A stretch of 64,000 nt of DNA from Patescibacteria group bacterium (lineage in GTDB: Bacteria > Patescibacteriota > Minisyncoccia > Phycocordibacterales > CAIRYW01). Shown piece after piece: positions 3,179 to 64,000 of this stretch; within the stretch, counting starts at the first letter, position 1; every line of letters begins with the position of its first letter. The notes beneath the pieces are model-generated. The model did not search any database and had not been told where the DNA came from. It saw nothing but the letters and a program-made list of their open reading frames with translations. The position numbers were made by a program, and so were the translations under genes. The stretch covers positions 5,127-69,126 of the forward strand of contig JAZKAJ010000007.1 in NCBI GenBank assembly GCA_040389185.1, in the 5' to 3' direction.

Positions 3179-3476
3179 ATGTTTATAAGGTCATATTTCA
3201 GACAACGACACATTCCTCCGACTCAAGACGCTCTGATAACGCATCAAACGACAATAAGAAGGTGGTGAAAATGCGAGTGACTGAACCGTCTTGAATGTGT
3301 ACGGTTTTTGAAAACCAACTACACCCAAAACATATCAGACCATATGAACTCAAATAAGGAGCAGAATTACAGTGTGGGCACCGTGGGCAGTGTGTTTCGT
3401 CCATAATCCGCACAATAACATATTTTTTATAAAAAGCAATGGTCTCAATATATCTGTATTAAAATGACGCTCAACC

Positions 3477-3716: not shown

Positions 3717-3747
3717 ATTAATATCATCCTACCTTTCTCCAATCCTA

Positions 3748-3790
3748 AAATCAAACAGCACCGCGGCGTAGCCGCGGTGCTGTTTTAAAT
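3748..3790. terminator. Family-1 conserved bidirectional terminator (T1a): A-run, CAGCACCGCGG-CGUAG-CCGCGGUGCUG, U-run
   Basis: GC-rich perfect hairpin flanked by AAAATCAAA and TTTTAAATTT. One of 5 near-identical copies in the window. Sits 38 nt past the sortase stop. Confidence 0.6.
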
Positions 3791-3827
3791 TTCCTCATTA
3801 ACTCACCCCTCACAACCCATCACTTTT

Positions 3828-6045: not shown

Positions 6046-6081
6046 CAGCAAGAGTGAAAAGTGATTAGGAATTAGTAAAAA

Positions 6082-6116
6082 GAAAAAGTGCCGCGGCTAC
6101 GCCGCGGTACTTTTTA
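6082..6116. terminator. Family-1 conserved bidirectional terminator (T1b): AGUGCCGCGG-CUAC-GCCGCGGUACU
   Basis: Hairpin with one G.U pair, flanked by A-run and T-run, between convergent genes (CARDB + / gyrB -). Confidence 0.6.
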
Positions 6117-6149
6117 ATTTACTTTCTACTTTTCACTAATTACTTGTTA

Positions 6150-8317
<2,168 letters not shown>

Positions 8318-8982: not shown

Positions 8983-10959
8983 TTAGCGGACAAGCCACTT
9001 ATTTTCCACAAGCGCACCGGTTATTCTCTCCATCACTTTATTTACCTCATCATCAGTAAGTGTCTTTTCATATGATTGAAACACGAGTCTGAATGCAAAA
9101 GAAGTTTTTTCTATTGCGCCCGTTTCTTTATTTGTCTTTTCAAACACATCAAAGAGTTCGTGACGAACCAAGAGATCTCCTACGTGAGTTTCTATCACAT
9201 GCCAGACTTTTCCTGCATTTGATTTGTCCCCTTCTACAAATACCGCAATATCTCGAACCATAAATGGATACGGAGAAGGTGCTTTATATTTCTTTACTTC
9301 TTTTGAAACAGGAATTTTGATTGATTCCTTTAGTTCAGGAAGACCTGCGATAAGGGCTTCAAAATCAACCTCCATTATTCCATCAAGATTATTTGTCATT
9401 CCGATTGATTTACCTCCTTTTGAAATAATCCCGCCACTATCATCCACCGTACACAGTATCTCAATTTTTGATCCTAAATGTTCGAAAAGTTCATCTCGTA
9501 CCACCTTGATCTCATCATTTGGTCTCTCGCCTTTCTTTGCTTTCTTATATGCAATACCGATACAAAGCGACAGAAATTCTCTCCCATCTTTCCACACTCG
9601 TCCAAATTCAAATACTTTGATCTTGTTTTGACCCAAAAGATCTGCATAATAAATATTATTTTTTAACTTCTCCTCCATTTGTGTTAAGAGATCTGTTCGG
9701 AGACTTTTCTTGTCTTCTGCAAGAGGATTCATTATTTCAACCTCTCCTTTTGGAGCCAATGTATATGACTGCACCTCACTAAATCCTCTTTCAATAAGGA
9801 AATTACGTACAATATTTCGATATGTAATATCATTGTTCAAAACAACTGGAATACTGATAACGGGAAGTGTTCCTTCAATATTCTCATACCCATAAAGCCT
9901 CCCAACCTCATCCACAATATCTTCTTTTATATTCAAATCCCTTCTTCCATCTGTTGGATATACCGCAATTAAAGCACCTTCTCGCCGTGCATTTATTGAT
10001 GCATTCTTTAGTAGCTCTATAATTGTTTCAGACGAAATTTCTTTTCCGAGCTTTTCACATATAAACTCAGGTGATACTTCAACCTTTTTTTCACTCTTTT
10101 TTGCAAGACCTGCAGACGAGATAGCGCTTACAGTAATCTCTGGATTTTCTTTTTTGAGTAATGAAACGAAATAGTTCAACGCTTCAATTGTGAGCATAGA
10201 GCTTACTCCATTTTCAAATCTCTTTGATGAATCAGTTTTGATATTGAGTTTTGTTGAAGTTTTACGTACGAGGCTTGCAACAAAATGTGCGGATTCAACA
10301 ATCACATGATCAGAATTATGAGTGGTCTCAGCTAGTTTGCCGCCTTTGATCCCAGCGATTGCAAGAGGATTTTTTTCATCTGCAATAACAACAATGCTCG
10401 AATCAAGCTTTACTTCTTTATTGTCCAAAGTGGTTATAGCTTCTCCCGTTCTTGCATATCGAACCACAATATCGCCCGATACCTTTTCTGCATCAAACAC
10501 ATGCATCGGCTGTCCAATATCAAGCATCACAAAGTTTGCAATATCTGCAAAGATATTGATAGATCGCTGTCCTACCGCTTCGAGCTTCTCTTTAAGCCAT
10601 AGAGGTGAATCAGCTTTTGTCACATTCATAATCCGGGTTGCATTATATGAATCACAAAAATCTCCCGCTTCGACAGAAACATTGACACCCATAACATCAT
10701 CAGCTTCGATTTCAGGAAGTATGCGAGGAATGAATTCATTGTCCGGAATGAGCGCCGCAAGCTCTTGTGCGACACCTTGATGTGAAAGACAGTATGATGC
10801 CCGATCTGGAAGCACTTTCACATCGAGGATATCATCGGTTGTTCTTTTCTCAATTCCCTCAACTTCAAAAATATGGAATGTCAAAAGCTCCGCAATCTTG
10901 TCGGACGACGGAAGAGGTTTCTTAAAATATGTCTGGAGCCACTTGTGTGAAATTTTCAT
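8983..10959 (-). CDS. pheT: phenylalanine--tRNA ligase beta subunit
   Basis: 658 aa. The N-terminus MKISHKWLQ... and domain order (B3/4, B5, catalytic-like, FDX-ACB) fit PheT. Confidence 0.88.
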   Translation of the reverse strand: MKISHKWLQTYFKKPLPSSDKIAELLTFHIFEVEGIEKRTTDDILDVKVLPDRASYCLSHQGVAQELAALIPDNEFIPRILPEIEADDVMGVNVSVEAGDFCDSYNATRIMNVTKADSPLWLKEKLEAVGQRSINIFADIANFVMLDIGQPMHVFDAEKVSGDIVVRYARTGEAITTLDNKEVKLDSSIVVIADEKNPLAIAGIKGGKLAETTHNSDHVIVESAHFVASLVRKTSTKLNIKTDSSKRFENGVSSMLTIEALNYFVSLLKKENPEITVSAISSAGLAKKSEKKVEVSPEFICEKLGKEISSETIIELLKNASINARREGALIAVYPTDGRRDLNIKEDIVDEVGRLYGYENIEGTLPVISIPVVLNNDITYRNIVRNFLIERGFSEVQSYTLAPKGEVEIMNPLAEDKKSLRTDLLTQMEEKLKNNIYYADLLGQNKIKVFEFGRVWKDGREFLSLCIGIAYKKAKKGERPNDEIKVVRDELFEHLGSKIEILCTVDDSGGIISKGGKSIGMTNNLDGIMEVDFEALIAGLPELKESIKIPVSKEVKKYKAPSPYPFMVRDIAVFVEGDKSNAGKVWHVIETHVGDLLVRHELFDVFEKTNKETGAIEKTSFAFRLVFQSYEKTLTDDEVNKVMERITGALVENKWLVR

Positions 10960-12348: not shown

Positions 12349-15300
12349 TCATTTTATTAATGAATTCAACACTTCCCTCGTCTTTGGTCCAAAGTATCCT
12401 ATAGCAGGAGTAATATTGTATGCTTTTTGAAATTTGATCAGAGCTGCTTTTGTTGCAGGACCAAAATATCTTGTCTCGAATCCAGAAGATCCAGGACCAG
12501 CTACGGCAATAGGAAAATTGTGTGTATTGAGGAAGATCTGGAGATATTTTATATCATCACTTCGTATAGTTCCGAATGGAATGTCTTTAGTGAAGGTAAA
12601 GCCGAGTGTGGTATTGATCGGGGAGGTTCGAACACTTGGAATATTCGGAATTTGAGAAATTGATTTTGAACACGCTTCTCCTGTAAGAATACTGAAATTA
12701 AATCCTTGAAAACATCCTGGAATAGTGGGTTCTGTAGTACGACAAGGAAGACCGGTATTTGTATCAAATCTCTCTCCTCCCAAACAAGTGGGAAGATGAG
12801 GAGGAGTATTATTATTAATTTGAGTTCTTGAAATAGAACTTGCTGAACCACTTGTATTTCTAGTTCCCTCTTGTTCCGGCGCTTGATCTGTTGACTCAGA
12901 TGTAATAGCGAAAGAAGTGAGAGGAAGCGGAGTACTTGTGTTACCAGCATTATCAGTCACAGCAATCGTGCAGTTCAAATATGTTCCGACTGTGAGTGTA
13001 GAGAGAGTGATTGTATTAGAACCTGAAGATACACTTGTCGTCACACTACTACAAGATCCACCATATGTAATTGTACCGGCTTCAGTTGTTGAAAAAGTGT
13101 AGTTTGGGCTAGTGTTTGTTCCAGAAGTGACCGGTGTGATCTCTGCCAGTGACGGTAAAGTAGTGTCGATTGTTATTGAGAGTGCAGGTGATGCACCACT
13201 TTCATTACCCACAGAATCTACTTCAGTGTATGTGATACTATGCACTCCAGGATCTAAGGCAGTACTTGTAATTGTAAAATTATCTGAATTGCATCCGATA
13301 TAATTATTAAATATCCTATCAACATATAGATTCACTTGAATATCAGTACATGTGCCAGTAAATGTTGGTGATGTGTCGTTCGTTACATTATCCGTCGATG
13401 ATGCGCCCGTATCACTTGAAGAATCCAGGTCTGGTGCAGAAGAAGGTGTAGAAGGTGGAGTAGTGTCTACAGTCGCGGTAGTGGTCGCAACATCTGAAAA
13501 GTTACCGATGGTATCATAGGCAAATATTGAGTAGTGATACGTCCCATCAGGTACATTTGCAAGATCCCAAGATGTTCCACTAAGTCCTGTAACTACCGCT
13601 CCACCACTATTTGGATCAGTTACATATCCTACAGTAGTACCAAATACACTTACAGTTGAAAAATCAGAATCTATTGGATTAATCCACGAAAGATGAACAT
13701 TACCTCCTGATGGATTGGCAGTGAAGCTTGTCGACGCACTAGGCGCTGTAGTATCAATAACAATATCATTATTTGCACCAAGACTTCCCGTGGTACCTGG
13801 ATCAGGCAAAGTGAGGTTTGCGTCTATAGATGAAGAGGTACTTTTAATGCTTCCACTGTTTAAATCGAGCGCGGCGTTTGTTGCATAATCAAGGTCAGTC
13901 GAGTTGTCTCCATCTTGTACAGTATATGCAAACACCAAGGTGTCACTGCCAGAGCCTGAAGCATAAGTCGCAACAGCATCTGTTGTATCACTTGTCTCCA
14001 GAGTAAGATGCGGTGTACCCATGACTGTAACCGCCTCTGAAAAATGAACCTGTATTTCTACATTACCACTACTTGCAAACGCTCCTGAATTTGTAGAATC
14101 CACAGAAGTGACAGTTGGAGCTTGTGCCGCATACTGAAAAGTACCTCCGTTTGTCTCCACAAAAGTAGTATTGGAATCGTATGTTGCACCCGATACATCC
14201 ACAACAACACCAGGACCATCAGCAACCACAGTCCACGGATAAGGATCTTGTGTGAAATCTCTTACTGTAGTTATACTAGAAGTATATCTACGAGTAAGTG
14301 GGCCTTCTATAGAACCGCTAATATATGCACTTAAATCACCGTTAAATATAGCACTCGAGTTAAGAGTGCCTCCCCGATTCTGACTTGAATCGTTGAATGT
14401 AGCATCACCGGCTATAGTCCCATTATTGTATGAAGAATCATTAAAGACAGCATACGTTGTAATCATGCCCTCATTATGGGCACTATTATTGAAGGTAGTC
14501 GTAGCAAGCTCTCCACCATTGTACGTAATCCCACCATTACTATTTATATAGCCCCTGTTGAATGTTGCCCCATTCATAGCTTGAATATTTATATCTATAT
14601 ATCTATCATCTAGAGATGGTGAAAAGGTAAAAGTGTTTACTGTCGGAACACCGATTGATGATGTCCATATACCGTCTACAGCAATCACATCATCGGTAGA
14701 ATCTGGCGTGGCAGTAGTAGGTATGATAAAGGAAGAATCAATTCTCCAATTTCCCACATTACCCCAATCATTATTATTGATTGAATTGAAATATTTTCTT
14801 GTACTATTTACAGTCCCGGACGTACCCGCTACACCAGCAGTACCAGTCTGACCAGTTGAACCTACTAAACCGGTTTGCCCATTTGATCCAGAAGCGCCAG
14901 CGGAACCGTCTGCGCCGTTCGTACCGTTGCTACCATTTACACTTCCACAACCATTTTCATCACACCCTGGACTCGAACCACTTCCCCCACTTCCGCCAGA
15001 GCCACCAGAACCAGGACTTCCCGCAACCGCAGTGCCCCCGCCACCTGGCAGACCAGCAACACCGGCTGAACCAGCGGTGCCTGCTGAATATACTATGCTT
15101 CCGAATTGACTCAAGCTATCAATCGATACATTGCCCCCATTACCTCCATTACCTCCATTACCAGCATCACCTCCATTACCTCCATTACCAGCAGTACCAC
15201 CATTACCAGCGTCACCACCAGGACCACCAAGTCCGCCATTGCCACCATCTGTTCCGTTACAATTACAAGAAGGTACATCCGCACTACCACCAGGACCACC

Positions 15301-16134
15301 ATTTCCACCGGTACCTCCGTTACCTCCATTTGCACTCCCCCCATAACCACCACGGCCACCATTGCCGCCATTTGCACCATTACCACCATCTACAGAAATT
15401 ACAGCAAGGGAATGTATATTTGCATTAATTAAAACTATGTGGCCTCCATTGCCCCCATTACCACCATTTGCACCAGCAGATCCAGCTGTACCGTCCCCAG
15501 GACTTCCACCACCTGTACCGGCAGTACCAGCACTTCCACCACCCCCAGCATAAGCAGTAGGACCTCCTGCTCCCGGATCACCATCTATACCTCGATCCCC
15601 GTTTGTACCGTTAGCATCGCTGGTATTTGAACCATCATTGCCACTAGCCCCAGCATATCCATTTCCACCATTTGATTGTAGCTTGTCGTACACCGTCGAA
15701 GTCGCAATCGTGATATCCCCACCATTAGAACCGTCGGGTGAGCCAGCATCACCATTTGCACCATTTGCTGTAAGTCCGCCATGTACAATTGCATTTTGTA
15801 CTCTAAAACTGTAAGCATTATTTCCAGCAAAGCCGCCATTTGCAGAAATACCATCGGGACCACTAATTTGATGGCCTGCACCATCGATTATTACCCCATC
15901 AGATTGAATAGTAATACAAACTCCCGAAGAAGTTATAATATCTTGGGTCAATGTATATGTACCTGGATCAGTAATAGTCTGACAACTAGATATTTCAGTT
16001 GTTAACGGCACCGCCCGGGTCGTTTTTGGAAATAAAAAAACTCCTCCAACAGAAAAAAGAGTAATCGTAAAAATCATGAGAGGTGAAACAAAGCTATATA
16101 CTCGCTTTAACGTTCGTGATTTATAGATGGACAT
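12349..16134 (-). CDS. giant secreted surface protein (1261 aa): beta-helix-like N-terminal region, Gly/Asn-rich repeats with a collagen-like G-X-Y run, Ig-like/Thr-Ser-rich repeats, C-terminal peptidoglycan-binding domain
   Basis: N-terminal signal/[10 protein letters not shown]-type low complexity. A strict triplet run [36 protein letters not shown]-terminal ...[33 protein letters not shown] matches the PG_binding_1 signature. Overlapping alternative-frame ORFs are low-complexity artefacts. Confidence 0.8.
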
Positions 16135-32300: not shown

Positions 32301-32335
32301 AGGGAAGTCACAAGCCTTCCCTCCTTTTTAATTTC
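32301..32335 (+). terminator. Rho-independent terminator GGAGGGAAG-UCACAAGC-CUUCCCUCC + UUUUU
   Basis: Perfect 9-bp stem followed by a T-run. Confidence 0.6.
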
Positions 32336-32336
32336 A

Positions 32337-32374
32337 AACAAAAATGCATCGCGGCTACGCCGCGATGCATTTTG
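32337..32374. terminator. Family-1 conserved bidirectional terminator (T1c), covarying variant AUGCAUCGCGGC-UAC-GCCGCGAUGCAU
   Basis: Same GCGGCUACGCCGC core as the other copies, with compensatory stem changes (CACC/GGUG -> CAUC/GAUG). Lies 11 nt past the pyrG stop. Confidence 0.6.
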
Positions 32375-32384
32375 AATTTATTTT

Positions 32385-37455: not shown

Positions 37456-37495
37456 TTTTTGTATCAAACATCCCAAACGAAATAAACTATTTCTT

Positions 37496-37563
37496 AAAAA
37501 GACTTCGGAGGCGGGTAGCTGAGACTTGAGGAATTCGCAAGCTTGCGAATATCCGTGCTTTTT
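37496..37563 (-). repeat. Copy A of the conserved bipartite 3' element (minus sense: AAGCACGGAUAUUCGCAAGCUUGCGAAUUCCUCAAGUCUCAGCUACCCGCCUCCGAAGUCUUUUU)
   Basis: Shares the flanks GCACG...AUA and GUCUC.GCUACCCGCCU.CGAAGUCUUUU with copies at 401-461 and 62469-62534. The central hairpin differs in sequence but keeps its pairing. Sits immediately 3' of the minus-strand gene ending at 37574. Confidence 0.55.
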
Positions 37564-37573
37564 AAGAAGTAGT

Positions 37574-38011
37574 TTATGCAGAGAAACTTACCTTATCGTC
37601 CGCATCAAGATAATCAAAAAGAGTTGTCGTTTTAGGATCAAGAGCCAATCTCTCACACTCACCTTGAAACCATTCTTTTTTATTTGGATCAGTCGAATAT
37701 GAAAAATCAGTCTTAAACGCGCTAGACCATTTACTTACTTCATCTGGAGTCTTTGTATCTCCATGAGTCTCTACCCATTTACCAATTTCTTCATCACTTG
37801 CCCCTGTTGCAACAAATGCCTTGAATTCTTCTGCATTAATATTTTTAAATCCAAAAAGAGTTTTGTCGAGTGGGCAATCAAAGTGATATTCTCCGGCAGT
37901 ATCATTTATAACAGCGCGGCATTTATCGATTGTTCTCGCCAAAATTGCAAATCCATTTATCGTTTCATAAGGACTTCGTGGCGCCTCAACAGCCAAATCT
38001 TTTGCTTCCAT
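37574..38011 (-). CDS. hypothetical protein (145 aa), last gene of the PEP-utilizer paralog operon
   Basis: ORF only. No recognisable motif. Confidence 0.45.
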   Translation of the reverse strand: MEAKDLAVEAPRSPYETINGFAILARTIDKCRAVINDTAGEYHFDCPLDKTLFGFKNINAEEFKAFVATGASDEEIGKWVETHGDTKTPDEVSKWSSAFKTDFSYSTDPNKKEWFQGECERLALDPKTTTLFDYLDADDKVSFSA

Positions 38012-44292: not shown

Positions 44293-44550
44293 TTATTTAT
44301 CTTTACCCCATCTCCAACGCGCTTTCTCACCTTTCATAATACAGACAATGATCAAGAAAAAAGTAAGTACCGCAAACGGAAAGACAAAATTAACAAGTAG
44401 ATTTCCATCTCCATCCAACATTGAACGGATATTCCACGACAAACCAATAAGTGCAAAAAGATAAAGAACCATTACACCCCATCCCTGCCATGTGTTTGGT
44501 GTCCATCCGTAGCCATATCTTTTTGCCCTAAACCATAGTTTATTATTCAT
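44293..44550 (-). CDS. hypothetical small membrane protein (85 aa, Trp-rich termini)
   Basis: ORF with two TM helices. Confidence 0.4.
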   Translation of the reverse strand: MNNKLWFRAKRYGYGWTPNTWQGWGVMVLYLFALIGLSWNIRSMLDGDGNLLVNFVFPFAVLTFFLIIVCIMKGEKARWRWGKDK

Positions 44551-44785
44551 ATTTATCCTAGAAAATTTTACCTATTAAAAAGTCGGTTTTACACCAATAT
44601 TATACCCTATCTTAAATATGAATAATATAACGTAGTGCGTCCAGAAAAGAAATCATGCCGAGCCGACTTTTTTGTTATGCAATATTCACCTTCTTGACCC
44701 AAGATTACAAAATAGGCCTAATTAAATTATATTAGATAGTATTTAGTTAAGCCTATATTGCATAACGATATAAGAATTATAGTCC

Positions 44786-44845
44786 AACTTCGACTCGGAT
44801 GCTGTGTACGAGAGTACTCGTCCACGCACTCCTCGCTCGTTGGAA
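44786..44845. repeat. Conserved intergenic motif copy 1: CGACUCGGAUGCUGUGUACGAGAGUACUCGUCCACGCACUCCUCGCUCG
   Basis: Shares CGACUCGGAYGCUGUGUACGA and GAGAGUACUCRUCCACGC.CUUCUCGCU with 51731-51856, where about 60 nt are inserted between the two halves. Contains the palindrome GAGUACUC. Confidence 0.5.
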
Positions 44846-44872
44846 TAGGTAAAACTTTAGAGGATGAATGTA

Positions 44873-45340
44873 TCAAGCCTGAAGCAGAGTCTCAATCCGT
44901 TTGAACTGGAGTTCTGAGACCGGACTTATTGAAAGTCTACTACCCCTCTGTGCCACCACCATGTGTTTGAGCACATCATCAGATTTTATTTCTGAAAGAG
45001 AAAGCGGGTTTTTATATTTCTTTACGAAAGCGAAATCAACACAATACCAGATCGGTTTTTCCTTTGTTGCTTTCGGGTCATAGTGTTCATGTTTTTTATT
45101 CTGCGCCGAGAGATCTGGATGGGGTTTTGAGACCACTTTTGCAAGTCCATATATTCCTGTTGGATTCTTGTCATTACCATTTGAATGATGAAACAGTGCA
45201 AGATCCCCCACGCGCATCCCATTCATCATAAAGTTTCGCGCCTGATAATTACGAACTCCTTCCCATGGAGTTTTCTTGTCTCGCTTTAGATCGTCTATTG
45301 AGTAGCATTCACCTTCGCTTTTTATAAGCCAATAGTTCAT
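44873..45340 (-). CDS. EVE (PUA-like) domain protein
   Basis: MNYWLIKSEGE...WEGVRNYQARNFMMNGMRVGDLALFHHS... matches the EVE/DUF55 signature. Confidence 0.8.
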   Translation of the reverse strand: MNYWLIKSEGECYSIDDLKRDKKTPWEGVRNYQARNFMMNGMRVGDLALFHHSNGNDKNPTGIYGLAKVVSKPHPDLSAQNKKHEHYDPKATKEKPIWYCVDFAFVKKYKNPLSLSEIKSDDVLKHMVVAQRGSRLSISPVSELQFKRIETLLQA

Positions 45341-49052: not shown

Positions 49053-50066
49053 TTATTTTGTTGTAAACGATCCCGCTTCTGATGTTGTCACATTACCACT
49101 CGCATCTGTACTTTGTACTTTGTAGAAATACTTTGTGCCAGATTTCAAACCACTTACTTTTAGGTCATGTACGTATCCGAGGTTTAACGATCCTGCATTA
49201 TCTGTTCCGTCTGTTCCAATACTCTCACTCTCACTTACCCATATTTTGCTGTTGGAAGCCTCATTAGTGATCCATATTACTCTTGCGTCACTAGTCCCCA
49301 CACTAATCACTGTGTTAAATAATATACTTGGAGCGCTTGTATCAACTGAAGATTCTGACTTGGTAGTAAAGCTGTTTATTCCACCCTGCTTAGTGTTTCC
49401 TGCCGCATCCTTTGCAGTAACTTCGAAGTAGTATTTTGTATTCGGATTCAATCCACTGAGCACTATCTTATGACTTGCTCCGAGAGATGTGTCGCTCAGT
49501 ACATTTGTACTTGCTTTAACATCATTTGCATTTGTTGCGTATCGGAGTTCACCTGTCGTTGAAGCGTTTGTATTCCAAGTTATTTCCGCTGTACTTGTTC
49601 CGATATTTGAGGCGGTAACATTTCTTACTACTACGAACGCATCAGGAGTGCTTGTTGCATGATTCCAATTGAACCAGTTTCCAAACCAGCTGTGCCACAA
49701 CCCATTAAACCATCCACCATTTTCACCCTTATCTTTGTCACCATTATCAGTTGAAGTGGCATAAGACTTGTCATGATCATCATTCCTATGTTCTGCGCTT
49801 ACAGTAGCCCCTATTCCCATATTTGCGCCATTATTGTGAGAAGCATTACCTATATGTGAATCAATTTTTGCTTCAATATTTGCGTTAGTTTTTAGATTTG
49901 GAACATTTCCATTACCGAGTAGTGCAACTTTCGAGTTTAGTAGATTCGCATTCGCAAACACTGGTACAAAAAACGAAAACATCAACACCGACAAAATTAG
50001 TTTATTTTTCATAGTATTATTTATTATCTTAATTTTAATATGTAAGAAAATCATTATAATCCTCAC
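49053..50066 (-). CDS. secreted protein with two fibronectin type III domains
   Basis: Signal peptide, His/Asn-rich low-complexity region, then two FN3-like repeats (...ITWNTNASTTGELRYATN...KYYFEVTAKDAAGN..., ...VIWITNEASNSKIWVSES...KYFYKVQSTDASGN...). Confidence 0.6.
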   Translation of the reverse strand: MRIIMIFLHIKIKIINNTMKNKLILSVLMFSFFVPVFANANLLNSKVALLGNGNVPNLKTNANIEAKIDSHIGNASHNNGANMGIGATVSAEHRNDDHDKSYATSTDNGDKDKGENGGWFNGLWHSWFGNWFNWNHATSTPDAFVVVRNVTASNIGTSTAEITWNTNASTTGELRYATNANDVKASTNVLSDTSLGASHKIVLSGLNPNTKYYFEVTAKDAAGNTKQGGINSFTTKSESSVDTSAPSILFNTVISVGTSDARVIWITNEASNSKIWVSESESIGTDGTDNAGSLNLGYVHDLKVSGLKSGTKYFYKVQSTDASGNVTTSEAGSFTTK

Positions 50067-50121: not shown

Positions 50122-51150
50122 TTATAGATGTATTCCAGGTAGGCTACCGCCTGCATCAGAATGTGTTTCAATGTGAACACTAGGTACATTAATGGTACCG
50201 TTATGACTTGATGAATCGGATGATTTAGTCTCTGTTTTGATTGTAGTCTTACTCTCATATCTTGTATTGAAGTCTGAAGAATCAACAGTGTCTTTTTTAG
50301 TTGAAGTTTCAGCTGTGGTAGATGCTGCTAGCATTGTCGTAGAAGCTTCATTTTCCACAATGGTTGTTGTTCCTTTATTTTCAGCAATTACTTCTTTGGG
50401 TTTTGAAAAAGCAGGTGCAAATACTGTTTTTGTTTCCACTTTTTTCTTTATATCATCCATACGAATATCATCAGATGGAGTAAGAAAAAGATCAAATTTT
50501 GCAATTACCTTACTTACCGTTTCTGCTAATCCCGAAGGAGAAGTATCCATTCTTTCTTGTGAACGCAAAGACCCAATAATCTTTTGGTGCTTATCAAGAT
50601 CTCCTCTAAATCTAGTAGCTTCTTCATTACTTGACCCTTTATCATCTTTTTGAAGATGTTCGAGTGTGACATTTGCCTGTACGGAATCTTCTTCAAATGA
50701 CTCTGCAAGATCCGTTTCCGTCTTTTGGTCAAGCTTTCCTTGCGTATACAACGCCTCGGCCTCTTCTAGTCGAGTATTAGCATTTAAGGTTAGCATTTTC
50801 ACCTTTTCTTTTTGATCTGTTGCAAAAGCGAGACCCACCTTCTCATTTAAGATCTTTACTGGATATAAAAGACTTCCAGGTAGTGCATTACTTGATGCAA
50901 AACTAATACCGCCCGTAAGCACTAACAAAAGTAATAGTGCCGACGGCACCATGAGTTTCTTATTATTAAAATAGTTTCCCACCCATTCGCTATACGACAC
51001 CCGTTTGTGTATTTGAAAACTACCACTTTCTTCAACAAGAGGATTGTCTTCTATATGCTTCAAGAGAGCATGCTTAATACTGTCTTTCTCATCGCTTGAA
51101 AGTGATATTCCTTTGGCTTTTTTTACTATATTCTTCAACCTAGTTCTCAT
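50122..51150 (-). CDS. putative anti-sigma factor (single-pass membrane protein co-transcribed with the ECF sigma factor)
   Basis: Overlaps the sigma gene stop by 11 nt. Cytoplasmic N-terminus, one TM helix (LMVPSALLLLLVLTGGISFA) and a Ser/Thr-rich extracytoplasmic domain. The role is inferred from context. Confidence 0.45.
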   Translation of the reverse strand: MRTRLKNIVKKAKGISLSSDEKDSIKHALLKHIEDNPLVEESGSFQIHKRVSYSEWVGNYFNNKKLMVPSALLLLLVLTGGISFASSNALPGSLLYPVKILNEKVGLAFATDQKEKVKMLTLNANTRLEEAEALYTQGKLDQKTETDLAESFEEDSVQANVTLEHLQKDDKGSSNEEATRFRGDLDKHQKIIGSLRSQERMDTSPSGLAETVSKVIAKFDLFLTPSDDIRMDDIKKKVETKTVFAPAFSKPKEVIAENKGTTTIVENEASTTMLAASTTAETSTKKDTVDSSDFNTRYESKTTIKTETKSSDSSSHNGTINVPSVHIETHSDAGGSLPGIHL

Positions 51151-51643
51151 GATTAAAAAGTTTTTTTATTTTTTTAATTGCTCTATGATACCGGACGGCT
51201 ACTGTATTTTCAGGTTCGCCCGTGATTTGAGATATTTCCCTGAAGCTTAGCTCCTGGACACACCTCATCATTATAACATCTTTAAATTCAACCGGAATTC
51301 TATCAAGAAGCCTGAATGCAAGAATGCTTTCAGAATGTTCTTCAATAGAAACTTCTACAGGGGCTGGCGGATCAAAATTTTCATCTTCACTTAGAGCATC
51401 AAGAGAGATAGCTTTCTTCTTTCGATAATAATCAATTATCAAATTCTTCATTGTTTGGTAGAAAAACGCCTTCAAATTCAATATCTGTCCTCCTCCTACA
51501 ACATAATTCCAAGTCTTCGTGAAAGTGTCTTGAAGTACATCTTTAGCGACTTCCCTGTCCCTAATATTAAAAAGACAGTGTCGAAAGAGGGCGTCGGCAT
51601 TTTCTTCATAGGCTCTTATAAAGTTGTTCTTTTGCTCTTCCAT
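51140..51643 (-). CDS. RNA polymerase sigma-70 factor, ECF subfamily
   Basis: Sigma-70 region 2 (...DVLQDTFTKTWNY...) and region 4 HTH (...LSFREISQITGEPENTVAVRYHRAIKKI...). Confidence 0.85.
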   Translation of the reverse strand: MEEQKNNFIRAYEENADALFRHCLFNIRDREVAKDVLQDTFTKTWNYVVGGGQILNLKAFFYQTMKNLIIDYYRKKKAISLDALSEDENFDPPAPVEVSIEEHSESILAFRLLDRIPVEFKDVIMMRCVQELSFREISQITGEPENTVAVRYHRAIKKIKKLFNHEN

Positions 51644-51730
51644 GGTAATTGACGATTAGGAATAATATTTCTGACAAAAAATCGCAATAAATGACTTAAA
51701 CCAGGGTGCGGGGTATTAAATCCTTTTGTT

Positions 51731-51856
51731 CAACTGCGACTCGGACGCTGTGTACGACTTTATCTTCTTACGAACGGAGTGAGTATTAGAAGATAAGAAG
51801 TACTCTTGTGGTGCGAGAGTACTCATCCACGCGCTTCTCGCTTGCTGAACCCAAAA
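51731..51856. repeat. Conserved intergenic motif copy 2 (with an about 60-nt internal insertion), 88 nt upstream of the ECF sigma factor start
   Basis: CAACUGCGACUCGGACGCUGUGUACGA...GAGAGUACUCAUCCACGCGCUUCUCGCUUGCUG matches 44786-44845. Confidence 0.5.
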
Positions 51857-51992
51857 ACACTTAAACCCAATCGGGGATGTTTATTATATAAATCGAAGAA
51901 AATTTGTAAAGATAAGTTATCCACTCCGTCTTCTAATATGTAAATACAGTTAAAAAGGCGGAATTTATCGATTAATCTAACTTAAAACTAAT

Positions 51993-52094
51993 ATGAATAA
52001 TCTAAAAAATACACTTTATAAAAGTCTGCGAATTGCAGAGATCGGGGGCCTGGCTCTTGTTATGATCATTGCATCTATACCGGCTCCACATTAA
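51993..52094 (+). CDS. possible 33-aa hydrophobic peptide (MNNLKNTLYKSLRIAEIGGLALVMIIASIPAPH)
   Basis: Short ORF ending immediately before the family-1 terminator T1d on the same strand. Speculative. Confidence 0.2.
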   Translation: MNNLKNTLYKSLRIAEIGGLALVMIIASIPAPH

Positions 52095-52139
52095 AAAACA
52101 AAAAGCACCGCGGCTACGCCGCGGTGCTTTTTGTTTTTT
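52093..52139. terminator. Family-1 conserved bidirectional terminator (T1d): AAAAAGCACCGCGG-CUAC-GCCGCGGUGCUUUUUGUUUUUU
   Basis: Canonical copy with a perfect stem and long A/T flanks, 3 nt beyond the DEAD-box helicase stop. Confidence 0.7.
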
Positions 52140-52141
52140 GA

Positions 52142-53557
52142 TTAATCTACGAAAGTCAGAGCCTTCCCCTTCGCACCTCCTCGTCCTGTTCGTCCTATTC
52201 GGTGAACATAGTCTTCGTAAGTTTCAGGGAGATCATAGTTGATCACGTGAGTCACATTCGGAATATCAAGTCCTCTTGCTGCAACGTCGGTTGCCACCAA
52301 AATCTGAACACTGTTATCTTTGAATGCCTTAAGAGCTCTCTGTCGTCTTCCGTGATTCTTGTCACCGTGAATAGACTCGGCCTTAAACCCTTTTTGAGTA
52401 AGAGTATCCATGAGCTTTTCAACCCCATGTTTTGTTCGTCCAAAGATAAGCACCTTTGAAAAATCTTTACCATTCAATAGATCATGGAGTACTTCGATCT
52501 TAACCTGATCTCGCTCAACTCGCACAACATCCTGATCAACTGATTTTGATGTGTCCCCAGTTTTTACAGAGATACTGATAGGATTCTTCAAGAAATCTTT
52601 AATGAGCACCTCGATATCTCGTGACATTGTCGCAGAGAAAAAGAGAGTATGTCGTTCTGCTGGCATAAGTCCCATCACATATTTCATATCTGCGATGAAT
52701 CCCATATCAAGCATTCGATCAGCCTCATCAAGAACAACTGTCGCGAATTCTCCGAAGTTAATACTTCGTCTTCGTTCAAGGTCCTTGAGTCGTCCTGGAG
52801 TTCCGATGATAAAGTTGTTGTGATACCTGAGGTCTCGCATTTGCATGCTGATTGGTGCACCACCAACTGCACAGACAGAATAGATCTTCATTCCTGGAGT
52901 AAGATCTTTTAATTCTTGGTCAATCTGAATCGCAAGTTCTCGAGTTGGCACCATAATGAGACAATTCTGCTTTGGATCTAGAATTACTTTATTGATCAAA
53001 GGAATTAAAAATGCTGCAGTCTTACCTGTTCCTGTGTTTGCAATACCAACAACATCCTGACCTTTGAGTACATGAGGAATTGCCTTGTCCTGAATAGGAG
53101 TTGGAGTTGTATATCCTTTTTTGAGAACATTGGCTTTTAGTTTTTCTTCAATTTTGAAATCAGCAAAGAGGTGTTCTGGTTTGAAGACTTCTTGTACTTC
53201 AGTTACAACAGCTTTGTTGATGAATCGTGAGACATCGATTCGAGGTCCTTTTGATCGGAATCCTCCTCGTCCTCCTCCTCGATTACCACCACCAAACCCA
53301 CCACGACTTCCGCCACGGAATCCTCCACCCTGTGGTCGTCCATAACCACCACGACTTCCATCAAATCGGCTCTCACTTGCACCTCTACTAAATCCACCCG
53401 CAGATCGTGTAGGAGCACTGAAAGACCGAGCTGGTCCAGTAGATGCTGGTGCTCTATGACTTGTAAATCCGCCTGCACGAGGACTTGGACTTCTTTGTCC
53501 AAATCTAGATGCACCTGCTCCTCTAGGAGCTCCTCCTGTTTTGTTATACATAAACAA
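52142..53557 (-). CDS. DEAD-box ATP-dependent RNA helicase with an about 100-aa N-terminal Arg/Gly-rich (RGG) disordered extension
   Basis: Q-motif, Walker A (ANTGTGKT), DEAD (VLDEADRMLDMGF), SAT, and motif VI (HRIGRTGRGG). The N-terminus is rich in GGFRGGSRGGFGGGNRGGGRGG. Confidence 0.9.
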   Translation of the reverse strand: MFMYNKTGGAPRGAGASRFGQRSPSPRAGGFTSHRAPASTGPARSFSAPTRSAGGFSRGASESRFDGSRGGYGRPQGGGFRGGSRGGFGGGNRGGGRGGFRSKGPRIDVSRFINKAVVTEVQEVFKPEHLFADFKIEEKLKANVLKKGYTTPTPIQDKAIPHVLKGQDVVGIANTGTGKTAAFLIPLINKVILDPKQNCLIMVPTRELAIQIDQELKDLTPGMKIYSVCAVGGAPISMQMRDLRYHNNFIIGTPGRLKDLERRRSINFGEFATVVLDEADRMLDMGFIADMKYVMGLMPAERHTLFFSATMSRDIEVLIKDFLKNPISISVKTGDTSKSVDQDVVRVERDQVKIEVLHDLLNGKDFSKVLIFGRTKHGVEKLMDTLTQKGFKAESIHGDKNHGRRQRALKAFKDNSVQILVATDVAARGLDIPNVTHVINYDLPETYEDYVHRIGRTGRGGAKGKALTFVD

Positions 53558-55583: not shown

Positions 55584-55596
55584 TTTGAAAAATAAT

Positions 55597-55631
55597 GAAA
55601 ATGCACCGCGGCTACGCCGCGGTGCATTTTA
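55597..55631. terminator. Family-1 conserved bidirectional terminator (T1e): AAAAUGCACCGCGG-CUAC-GCCGCGGUGCAUUUU
   Basis: Perfect hairpin between convergent genes (oxidoreductase + / surface protein -). Confidence 0.65.
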
Positions 55632-55647
55632 CTTTATTGTTCAGGGC

Positions 55648-62354: not shown

Positions 62355-62468
62355 ATATTTATACTAATTATTAAGTATAGGAATTATAACATATTCAAAC
62401 CGCCCCGTTGCCACGGGGCGGTAGGGCGTTCTGTATTTAAACACTGAAGCGGAGTCAAAGTATTTTTT

Positions 62469-62534
62469 GAAAAGACTTCGCAGGCGGGTAGCCGAGACCG
62501 AGCAAAAATTCAGCAGAATTTTATGCGTGCTTTT
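62469..62534 (-). repeat. Copy B of the conserved bipartite 3' element, immediately 3' of guaA
   Basis: The minus sense AAGCACGCAUAAAAUUCUGCUGAAUUUUUGCUCGGUCUCGGCUACCCGCCUGCGAAGUCUUUUC is nearly identical to plus-sense 401-461. Confidence 0.55.
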
Positions 62535-62559
62535 CAAAATGTACTTTGCGGAGCTTTTT

Positions 62560-64000
62560 TCACCCCCATTCAATAGTAGAAGGTGGTTTATCTGAAACTC
62601 GATATGTTACAGCACCAACAGCTCGAACCTCATTTGTAATTCTTTGAGAAACTTTTCGAAGGAATTCATAAGGTAATTCTGCAAACTGCGCTGTAAATCC
62701 ATTCACACTCCAAACCGCCCAGAGAGCAACAACAACACCTTGTGATGCGTCATCACCCTTGGTACATGTGATCATTGAATTAGTTACTACCGCTCCAGCC
62801 TGCCAGACAGTTTCATATATTTTAGCTTTTCGAAGTTCTTCAACATAAATACCATCAATATGTCGTGCAATAAGGAGATTGTCTTTTGTAACCTCTCCTT
62901 CAATTCGAACAACAAGCCCAGGTCCTGGAAATGGATGGCGAACCAAAAGCTCCTCTCTGACCCCAATTGCTCTTCCGATATCTCTTGCCCCATCTTTGAC
63001 ACAATCAGCAAGTGGCATTAATTCAGGGACAGAAAAACCAAGATTAGTATTGTGATGAAGCTTGATCTGCGCTCGTCTTGCACCATCGTGTCCCACCCCA
63101 CTCTCTGAGAGATCAGTATAGAGAGTTCCTTGTGCAATAAATTCTGCACCAAACTCTTTTACTTCTTGTTCCAATACTTCCTTATACACCTCCCTCATTG
63201 CCAATCTCTTTTCTGGCATCATGATCTTACCCTTGAGAACATCAAGAAATTTTTCTGTTGCATCCACCACCTTAACCTGGAGCCACGATTCGTTTTCAAA
63301 ATTATCCAGAACACTTTTTTCATCGTCGGGTCGATCAATCCCTTTGATATATATAGCCATTACTTTACCACTTGTTTCTCCCAATGCTTTACGAATAAGT
63401 CCCGCAACAACTGATGAATCGCAACCGCCCGAAAGAGCAATGAGCACCTTTTTGTCTCCCACAGTTTCTTTTATTTCCTTTATTTTTCTTTCTGCAATAT
63501 TTTCCGCTGGAAATCTATCCTTTGCTTTACATATCTCGAAACAGAAATTCTCAAATATCTTTATTCCATTTTCACTCTCGGTTGTTTCTGGATGAAACTG
63601 TACACCATAAAGATTTTTATATTTAGCCGCAGAAACCGGAGCATCGTCTGTGGTGCCTAATACTTCGAATTTTTCATATGGTTCAATCCTGTCTCCATGA
63701 CTCTCAAGTACTTTGGTTGTCTCTCCAAATCCTTTAAAAAGTGAGTCATTATTTTGAATATGAAGTGTATGTACACCAAACTCCCTCTTATTGGCTCCCA
63801 CAACCGTAGCTCCTATATAGTGCGCCCATAATTGAAATCCGAGACAGACACCGAGCACAGGGATTTCTAGATCAAAAATTTTAGAATCAAATGGCACACC
63901 CCCTTCTTCATAAACAGATGCAGGTCCTCCAGAAAGAACAATTCCGATTGGATTAATTTTTTTAATGTCTTCCACAGTTAAAGATCGAGGGTCTGCCACA
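62560..64000 (-). CDS. guaA: GMP synthase (glutamine-hydrolysing), partial: N-terminus beyond window end
   Basis: GATase region (...GVCLGFQ...GVQFHPE), ATP-PPase SGGCDSSV, and the C-terminal dimerisation domain ending ...PPSTIEWG followed by a TGA stop. Confidence 0.9.
   Translation of the reverse strand, partial: VADPRSLTVEDIKKINPIGIVLSGGPASVYEEGGVPFDSKIFDLEIPVLGVCLGFQLWAHYIGATVVGANKREFGVHTLHIQNNDSLFKGFGETTKVLESHGDRIEPYEKFEVLGTTDDAPVSAAKYKNLYGVQFHPETTESENGIKIFENFCFEICKAKDRFPAENIAERKIKEIKETVGDKKVLIALSGGCDSSVVAGLIRKALGETSGKVMAIYIKGIDRPDDEKSVLDNFENESWLQVKVVDATEKFLDVLKGKIMMPEKRLAMREVYKEVLEQEVKEFGAEFIAQGTLYTDLSESGVGHDGARRAQIKLHHNTNLGFSVPELMPLADCVKDGARDIGRAIGVREELLVRHPFPGPGLVVRIEGEVTKDNLLIARHIDGIYVEELRKAKIYETVWQAGAVVTNSMITCTKGDDASQGVVVALWAVWSVNGFTAQFAELPYEFLRKVSQRITNEVRAVGAVTYRVSDKPPSTIEWG

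Follow-up and report, generated by a model that had tools for sequence, protein, structure and literature searches.

A probable mobile hairpin repeat of Patescibacteria at two intergenic sites, one of them in the leader of an ECF sigma factor operon

Two short sequence blocks recur within a 64,000-nucleotide stretch of patescibacterial DNA (the window), once upstream of a gene for a small membrane protein and once upstream of a sigma factor operon, which raises the question of whether they represent regulatory DNA common to both genes or a repeat. The genes concerned all lie on the minus strand. At the first site, the intergenic region lies between an 85-aa small membrane-protein ORF without a Pfam match (44293-44550) and an EVE-domain gene (44873-45340), the protein product of which returned nothing on record in an exact look-up. 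The second site lies upstream of the gene for an ECF-type sigma factor (51140-51643), which is followed by that of an anti-sigma-like DUF5667 protein (50122-51150) and preceded by a DEAD-box helicase gene (52142-53557).

Shared blocks and hairpin structure

Exact matches to CGACTCGGAYGCTGTGTACGA were found at 44791-44811 (+) and 51737-51757 (+) and to GAGAGTACTCRTCCACGC at 44810-44827 (+) and 51815-51832 (+), against expected numbers in shuffled sequence of 0.00 and 0.02, respectively. In agreement with the preliminary description, both blocks were thus shared by the two sites and all four matches were on the plus strand. No third copy of either block was found in the 64-kb window with up to 3 mismatches allowed, and the copy density in the window was 2 per 64 kb. 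The split of copy 2, described earlier as an insertion of about 60 nt, was measured as 59 nt (51758-51816), which is the additional spacing between its blocks relative to copy 1. Distances to minus-strand gene starts also agreed with those reported, being 241 nt for the 85-aa ORF (start at 44550) and 88-94 nt for the sigma factor (start at 51643). The earlier consensus for the 3' block matched as far as the block itself was concerned but masked one C/T difference between the 3' tails, which read CTCCTCGCT in copy 1 and CTTCTCGCT in copy 2.

The conserved unit is larger than these blocks. Matches to a covariance model (R1) built from 18 copies extended from 44778 to 44852 in copy 1 (93.2 bits, E=4e-29) and from 51724 to 51857 in copy 2 (50.2 bits), and the full spans of the inserted units, as described below, were 44555-44865 and 51703-51858. 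Both copies, with their immediate flanks, fold as a long imperfect hairpin. In copy 1, the core hairpin (44778-44852, +) consists of a basal stem, TCCAAC/GTTGGA, and the conserved core of approximately 45 nt, and the predicted RNA fold of the plus strand has an energy of -24.5 kcal/mol.

Evidence for this structure came from comparison of copies. Thus, 90% of structure cells were paired in the 18-copy alignment as opposed to 32-48% (32-49% overall) when partner columns were slid, and pairs changed on both sides numbered six in this alignment and eight in a 25-copy alignment fitted to the model, the latter including five of the six basal-stem pairs. Basal stems of different copies read TCCAAC/GTTGGA, TTCGAC/GTCGAA, TTTGAC/GTCAAA, TTGCAA/TTGCAA, ACGAC/GTCGT and TTTTG/CAAAA. 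Within the core, pair 23-53 was C-G in most copies and U-A in window copy 1, while pair 21-56, G-C in most copies, was replaced by A-U in one other copy (L013) and by G·U in window copy 2. Wobble pairs were unevenly distributed between strands, with 48 G·U cells on the plus strand versus 14 A·C cells, which correspond to wobbles of the other strand, although related sequences are counted in these figures, which therefore overstate the number of independent events. The excess of G·U pairs indicates that the plus strand of the window is the structured one; relative to both neighbouring genes, this strand is antisense.

No Rfam family matched the motif at the gathering threshold in the window or in 19 related loci, and only chance-level or terminator matches were noted in the two motif regions when E values of up to 10 were permitted. 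The sequence GUACGAGAG resembles the sarcin-ricin loop; this candidate was rejected, the flanks of the sequence forming ordinary Watson-Crick pairs and copy 2 splitting the sequence itself.

Insertion sites in the window and in related genomes

For an empty-site comparison of copy 2, sigma-factor orthologs were retrieved first and then their contigs. In the corresponding contig of Candidatus Taylorbacteria RYN_386 (L037), the gene order is that of the window (DEAD helicase, sigma factor, DUF5667), the sigma factor is 93% identical and the intergenic region aligns well with that of the window on both sides of the element, which is precisely missing. The 156-nt insertion in the window (51703-51858, +) lies between perfectly matching 9-bp direct repeats of ACTTAAACC (51694-51702 and 51859-51867, +), read from the sequence as a target-site duplication, and ACTTAAACC is single-copy at the orthologous site in L037. 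With the insert and one repeat copy removed, the window aligned with L037 free of gaps (alignment A3). From its 5' end, the insertion comprises a degenerate module, GGGGTATTAAATCC, a basal stem, GTTCAAC/GCTGAAC, that encloses a core broken by a second hairpin (module B), and an A-rich 3' end. The element was absent upstream of five sigma orthologs in relatives, and a covariance-model search of the sigma-ortholog contigs L037-L042 gave no match.

The position of copy 2 relative to the sigma gene was evident from a sigma-70-like promoter, TTTACA-16-TATAAT (51883-51910, -), which agrees with the consensus at 11 of 12 positions and is conserved in the element-free L037. This promoter is directed toward the sigma gene and lies outside the element, upstream of the insertion, so that copy 2 probably lies in the 5' leader of the sigma operon. 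The structured strand of copy 2 is antisense within this leader, and the element is not a conserved regulatory site there. A box closer to the gene, TGTCA-N17-CGTCAA (51649-51676, -), which stops 7 nt short of the sigma ATG, is likewise conserved in L037; speculatively, this box could be the real ECF-type autoregulatory promoter, from which a leaderless mRNA would be made.

Comparison within the species indicated how copy 2 evolves. Contigs of MAG GCA_040384165.1 were 98.8-99.9% identical to the window and represent the same species. Between copy 2 and the corresponding contig of this MAG (L001), 6 of 156 positions differed (3.9%), while differences amounted to 0.2-0.35% in the sigma and helicase genes and 3.2% in the rest of the intergenic region, which indicates that the element is without strong sequence constraint at the sigma locus. 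Of the six changes, the four that affect stems all preserve plus-strand pairing (A-U to G·U, G·U to G-C, G-C to G·U and A×C to A-U). Three of these four lie within 10 nt of each other and match the variant seen at a further locus (L006), a cluster that could reflect one gene-conversion event.

Other features of the sigma locus were also noted. Downstream of the anti-sigma-like gene, the window encodes a protein with fn3 and purple-acid-phosphatase N domains (49053-50066, -) that is missing from the RYN_386 locus, where a gene for an FAD oxidase comes directly in its place. An unannotated 33-aa ORF, MNNLKNTLYKSLRIAEIGGLALVMIIASIPAPH (51994-52095, +), is divergent from the sigma gene and ends at a bidirectional terminator; this ORF is kept in L037 with an in-frame indel of 12 nt and is therefore probably a real small hydrophobic protein.

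Copy 1 was examined in the same way through orthologs of the EVE gene, which led to the syntenic loci L043, L045 and L047. In L043 and L045 (alignment A4), the distance from the EVE stop to the start of the small membrane-protein gene is only 12-15 nt, and the window contains approximately 310 nt extra. The 85-aa gene is therefore probably co-transcribed with the EVE gene in these relatives. The additional DNA is a composite insertion of 311 nt (44555-44865, +), absent from both orthologous loci, that consists of a left terminal inverted repeat (TIR), ATCCTAGAAAATTTTACCTATT (44555-44576, +), AT-rich hairpin modules at approximately 44578-44673 and 44674-44769, the core hairpin, and a right TIR, ATCCTCTAAAGTTTTACCTATT (44844-44865, -), which shares 19 of 22 bases with the left TIR. 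The only two matches to the left TIR in the window were the repeat itself and its opposite-strand partner. Folded as DNA, the insertion closes end to end (-46.7 kcal/mol, z=-6.3). No clean target duplication was identified outside the TIRs, no match was found to the left part of the insertion (44551-44777) among the loci compared, and covariance-model search of L043-L047 gave no match. These sequence comparisons indicate that the insertion of copy 1 split a former gene pair for the EVE and small membrane proteins and that the motif is not an ancestral part of the upstream region of the 85-aa gene.

A further locus with the same basal stem as copy 1 (L009) was tested as an ortholog of the copy 1 site and found not to be orthologous. 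In L043, a different palindromic insertion, TTTTGAGTACAAAAT...ATTTTGTACTCAAAA, was noted at approximately 3240-3330, between the small membrane-protein gene and a gene for a 121-aa protein; it is missing from both the window and L045, which points to the circulation of several hairpin insertions, unrelated to each other, among these genomes.

Dispersal among Patescibacteria and nested modules

The core of approximately 45 nt, GCTCGGACGCTGTGTACGAGAGTACTCGTCCACGCGCTCCTCGCT, was found nearly invariant at more than 30 other patescibacterial loci, with unrelated sequence on both flanks. In a scan of one genome per species, the left block was matched exactly on three RYN_386 contigs (Candidatus Taylorbacteria) and one contig from the isolate AH-24oct19-230, while the right block, sought in metagenome contigs, gave 27 loci, mostly from groundwater. 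Model R1 had 37 plus-strand matches with E values of 1.2e-8 or less from 34 sources, those in the window being only the two known copies. One left-block match in Gloeobacterales (L007) was GC-rich and apparently coding; since it lacked the right block and was not matched by the covariance model, it was regarded as a chance match. Viral contigs scanned with both blocks gave no match.

The GC content of the hosts ranged from 37 to 55%, and the RecA encoded beside one of the high-GC copies had its closest named relatives in Patescibacteria/Paceibacterota. Flanking genes encode housekeeping functions, including tRNA synthetases, MreB, ribosomal protein L19, RecA, PolA and IF-2, and no Pfam family among the matches listed occurred in more than 3 of 135 flanking ORFs. 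All four possible orientations of the element relative to its neighbour genes were seen, as judged from crude ORF calls. In about half of the copies, an A-tract and a GC-rich hairpin, the latter being the terminator of a convergent gene, follow within approximately 10 nt, and the A/T-rich foot of terminators may therefore be a preferred site. Other copies are flanked by AATAA-like or AAGTAG repeats of 5-7 bp, as read at the filled sites. Overall, flanking direct repeats were 9 bp, approximately 6 bp, 3-4 bp (nested modules) or none (the core nested in the element interrupted at L026, described below).

Breaks in assemblies also coincided with the motif. Thus, in the same-species MAG one contig breaks off at window position 44837, a Logan contig ends at 44812, and several metagenome contigs likewise end inside or at the motif. 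Contigs ending at a sequence are a typical effect of repeats on assembly.

Several copies carry other modules within them. Module B of copy 2 is a nested hairpin of 59 nt, CTTTATCTTC...GGTGCGA (51758-51816, +), that lies in the apical loop of the core, follows CGA and itself ends in CGA; cores without this module read GTACGA directly joined to GAGTACTC. At locus L006, the core contains two B-like modules, one after TCGA in the 5' arm and the other after ACGA in the apical loop, and at L005 (2588-2647) a B-like module occurs outside any core. A different insert, which follows TCGC and ends in TCGC, was found at L035, and an insert within the 3' arm of the core was found at L005. Longer members of the family have extra 5' hairpins followed by GGTATTRAACC, and the sequence of these hairpins varies while their pairing is kept.

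The core can itself be nested. One metagenome population contained a non-coding element of 290 nt, bounded by AGTAAA, in 10 or more nearly identical copies whose flanks are unrelated, and a further copy, at L026, is missing exactly the stretch of approximately 95 nt that contains the core, which indicates that the core is itself an insert in the 290-nt element.

Genes for mobility functions were sought in the ORFs of the window and in those that flank the copies. No transposase, integrase or reverse transcriptase was found among the best 25 of 73 Pfam families matched by the 54 window ORFs or among the best 25 of 138 families matched by the 135 flanking ORFs, and no RAYT gene was among the 25 families listed for either set. 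In one contig (L017), inverted core copies were noted 2.3 kb apart, at 6899-6973 (+) and 9300-9374 (-); the interval contains a UPF0150/HicB-like gene and a gene for a 471-aa protein that has no Pfam match and carries a CNQCPKC motif. Interpretation of this pair as a composite transposon was rejected, the 471-aa protein not appearing transposase-like by eye and no transposase having been found.

Interpretation and relation to known repeats

Taken together, both copies in the window are very probably members of a dispersed, non-coding hairpin repeat that occurs in Candidatus Taylorbacteria and other Paceibacteria-type CPR bacteria and behaves as a non-autonomous mobile element. A small mobile repeat had been offered as the fallback in the preliminary description, and this is the part borne out by the empty sites in relatives and by the copies at more than 30 unrelated loci. 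The position of the element near two minus-strand genes is incidental, although the element may alter mRNA stability or read-through at the window sites. The family is best read as one of the MITE and MITE-like intergenic repeats, broadly defined (MITE/REP/ERIC-like; criteria as in PMC3184786). The invariant core would act in cis as the structure that a mobilising protein, encoded elsewhere and acting in trans, recognises and, because wobble pairs favour the plus strand, this recognition would be of the single-stranded plus strand. Spread would be MITE-like and would probably favour A/T-rich sites at the feet of terminators.

Some findings count against this interpretation. Among the Pfam matches listed, no mobilising gene was present in the window or beside any copy, and the core unit is without terminal inverted repeats. 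The variable flanking repeats are not the pattern of a single DDE transposase and, with lengths that range from 9 bp to none, no single known mechanism fits cleanly. Finally, the unpaired bases of the core are strictly invariant across divergent hosts, which would equally fit an RNA of benefit to the host. There is a minor chance that the family represents either a new kind of CPR mobile element, characterized by a lack of TIRs, variable target duplications, an A-rich 3' end, hairpin-loop and terminator-foot targets and nested mosaics, or a protein-binding RNA module retained by the host. The pattern of a new element of this kind would fit RNA-mediated retroposition (SINE-like, target-primed) or a single-strand transposition that targets structure.

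Movement as single-stranded DNA by an HUH tyrosine transposase (RAYT/TnpA), as for REP/REPIN or IS200/IS605-type (PATE-like) elements, is unlikely. The imperfect palindrome with strand-specific pairing, the absence of TIRs from the core, the constant placement of nested modules between the same short sequences (CGA...CGA, TCGC...TCGC) and the A-tract and GC-rich hairpin that follow about half of the copies, which suggest insertion beside terminators, are all in keeping with such a mechanism, whereas the perfect 9-bp duplication at copy 2 is unexpected for Y1 transposases and no Y1 transposase was among the matches listed for the window ORFs or the 135 flanking ORFs. REP sequences are defined by a palindrome of 20-40 bp with an unpaired GTAG or CGTC tag (PMC3733652). 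The core hairpin of the present family measures 45 nt (75 nt when the basal stem is counted), and units range from 75 to 310 nt; the window copies start with CGAC and carry neither tag. Palindromic hairpins that often follow genes and terminators, and that are thought to act or move as single strands, are a likeness to REP/REPIN sequences and their RAYTs (PMC3116915, PMC3733652), REPs being mostly downstream of coding regions (PMC3733652). In contrast, REPs usually occur as inverted pairs and are lineage-specific, neither of which applies to the window copies.

A structured small RNA, present as a multi-copy gene or module that serves the host, for instance by protein binding or transcript stabilization, is rather improbable; mobility would then be secondary. 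The near invariance of the core, including loops and bulges, across hosts of 37-55% GC, the covariation of the basal stem, the G·U pairs that favour one strand and the within-species stem substitutions that preserve structure would all be explained by such an RNA. Against it, no conserved promoter or terminator was seen in the plus orientation, the hairpin being followed by an A-rich rather than a U-tract, orientation to neighbour genes is arbitrary, orthologous sites in close relatives are empty, the copy in the window lineage evolves at an intergenic rate (3.9% versus 0.2-0.35% in adjacent genes) and Rfam gave no match.

The proposal from which the analysis started, that the motif is an ECF-sigma-dependent promoter or operator common to the sigma operon and the 85-aa membrane-protein gene, is highly improbable. 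The two window copies do lie upstream of minus-strand gene starts, and copy 2 is in the upstream region of the sigma factor. However, a scan for the ECF-type -35/-10 pattern GAAC-N15-18-CGT gave 10 matches in the window, none of them in either intergenic region (44551-44872 and 51644-51993). Each half of the motif alone is too short for both promoter elements and, because the halves lie 59 nt further apart in copy 2, no -35/-10 pair that spans them can be shared. Moreover, the element is absent at five sigma orthologs while the sigma-70-like promoter and the TGTCA-N17-CGTCAA box are conserved outside it, and its wobble bias is toward the strand antisense to both genes. Elsewhere, at more than 30 loci, the motif adjoins unrelated genes and shows no association with gene starts or sigma factors, a distribution that the preliminary description itself had named as contradicting a promoter. 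Assignment of the 85-aa gene to the sigma regulon is likewise not supported; the EVE/85-aa gene pair of relatives lacks the element, has a spacer of 12-15 nt and is probably co-transcribed. The result removes a false regulatory link, the motif being no ground for placing the 85-aa membrane protein in an ECF sigma regulon.

An orphan attC-like recombination site of integrons can be practically dismissed, since the resemblance of basal boxes to R''/R' (RYYYAAC...GTTRRRY) is confined to the Taylorbacteria subfamily (GTCCAAC...GTTGGAA, and GTTCAAC...GTTGAAC in L001) while other family members have GTCRAAA or GCCGAAA, and since, despite the strand-specific folding of an imperfect hairpin, the centre is invariant here as opposed to variable in attC, no cassette array or cassette ORF within the insertions was found and no integrase near the copies was among the Pfam matches listed.

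Within this broad class, the closest resemblance of the non-autonomous hairpin repeat proposed here is to ERIC, as a conserved imperfect palindrome with variants due to internal insertions, to BOX, as a modular repeat, and to REP/REPIN, as hairpins located after genes. Several properties are shared with bacterial MITEs, as defined in PMC3184786 and exemplified by Correia/CREE, RUP and Nezha. Units are short (75-311 nt), non-coding, multi-copy and intergenic, with no transposase ORF; the hairpin is long and stable, presence varies among related genomes, and a target-site duplication is seen at copy 2 and 22-bp TIRs in the unit that contains copy 1. Unlike MITEs, the 156-nt copy 2 and the consensus core unit lack TIRs, flanking repeats are of no constant length, conservation resides in an internal hairpin rather than at the termini, and the host bacteria are CPR members whose genomes are very small. 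BOX elements of Streptococcus pneumoniae (PMC3184786) are similarly modular, with conserved ends, a variable number of internal modules and a predicted RNA structure, but their sequence is unrelated and their modules are in tandem as opposed to nested in hairpin loops and arms. ERIC (RU-1) sequences of Enterobacteriaceae (PMC3184786, PMC2759123) are likewise imperfect palindromes conserved across genera and located in transcribed intergenic regions in either orientation. They differ in sequence, in phylum, and in having TIRs and TA flanks, whereas the patescibacterial repeat has a shorter core and more extensive nesting. A further likeness is that longer variants arise from insertions at fixed internal sites, internal insertions being reportedly the source of ERIC size variants (Wilson and Sharp in 2006). 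The SDR elements of filamentous cyanobacteria, nested mobile repeats reportedly of 21-27 nt (Elhai and coworkers in 2008), are also small repeats inserted within other repeats and hairpins, but they are cyanobacterial and shorter than the core of 45-75 nt, which has its own conserved structure.

Literature searches gave no account of repeats of this type in Patescibacteria and, with no Rfam model either, the family appears to be undescribed. Patescibacteria genomes are among the smallest and most streamlined, and selfish non-coding DNA would not be expected to be common in them. Because the family breaks metagenome assemblies at its copies, it is also a practical cause of fragmented CPR MAGs. 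The combination of an invariant core with variable nested surroundings provides a tractable handle for finding the mobilising machinery.

Other repeats were noted in the window. A second dispersed motif, at 37484-37590 and 62457-62560, consists of AAAsTATTTyTTrAAAAGACTTCGsAGGCGGGTAGCyGAGAC, a hairpin that differs in sequence between the copies while pairing is kept, and sCGTGCTTTTyAA. The neighbours of this motif are DUF5069 and tRNA-Thr genes at one site and Band_7 and GMP synthase genes at the other, and the motif may represent a further repeat family or else a structured RNA. A near-identical stem-loop, GCACCGCGGCTACGCCGCGGTGC, forms five terminator hairpins (3743-3791, 6073-6121, 32331-32379, 52090-52138 and 55588-55636), which have A and T tracts on both sides, as bidirectional terminators do; the ortholog of such a terminator in L037 carries compensatory changes, GCACCGCAGCTACGCTGCGGTGC. 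Lastly, a 1261-aa protein (12349-16134, -) contains collagen-like triplet repeats, seen as a 9-nt periodicity in the DNA, together with Big_13 and peptidoglycan-binding domains.
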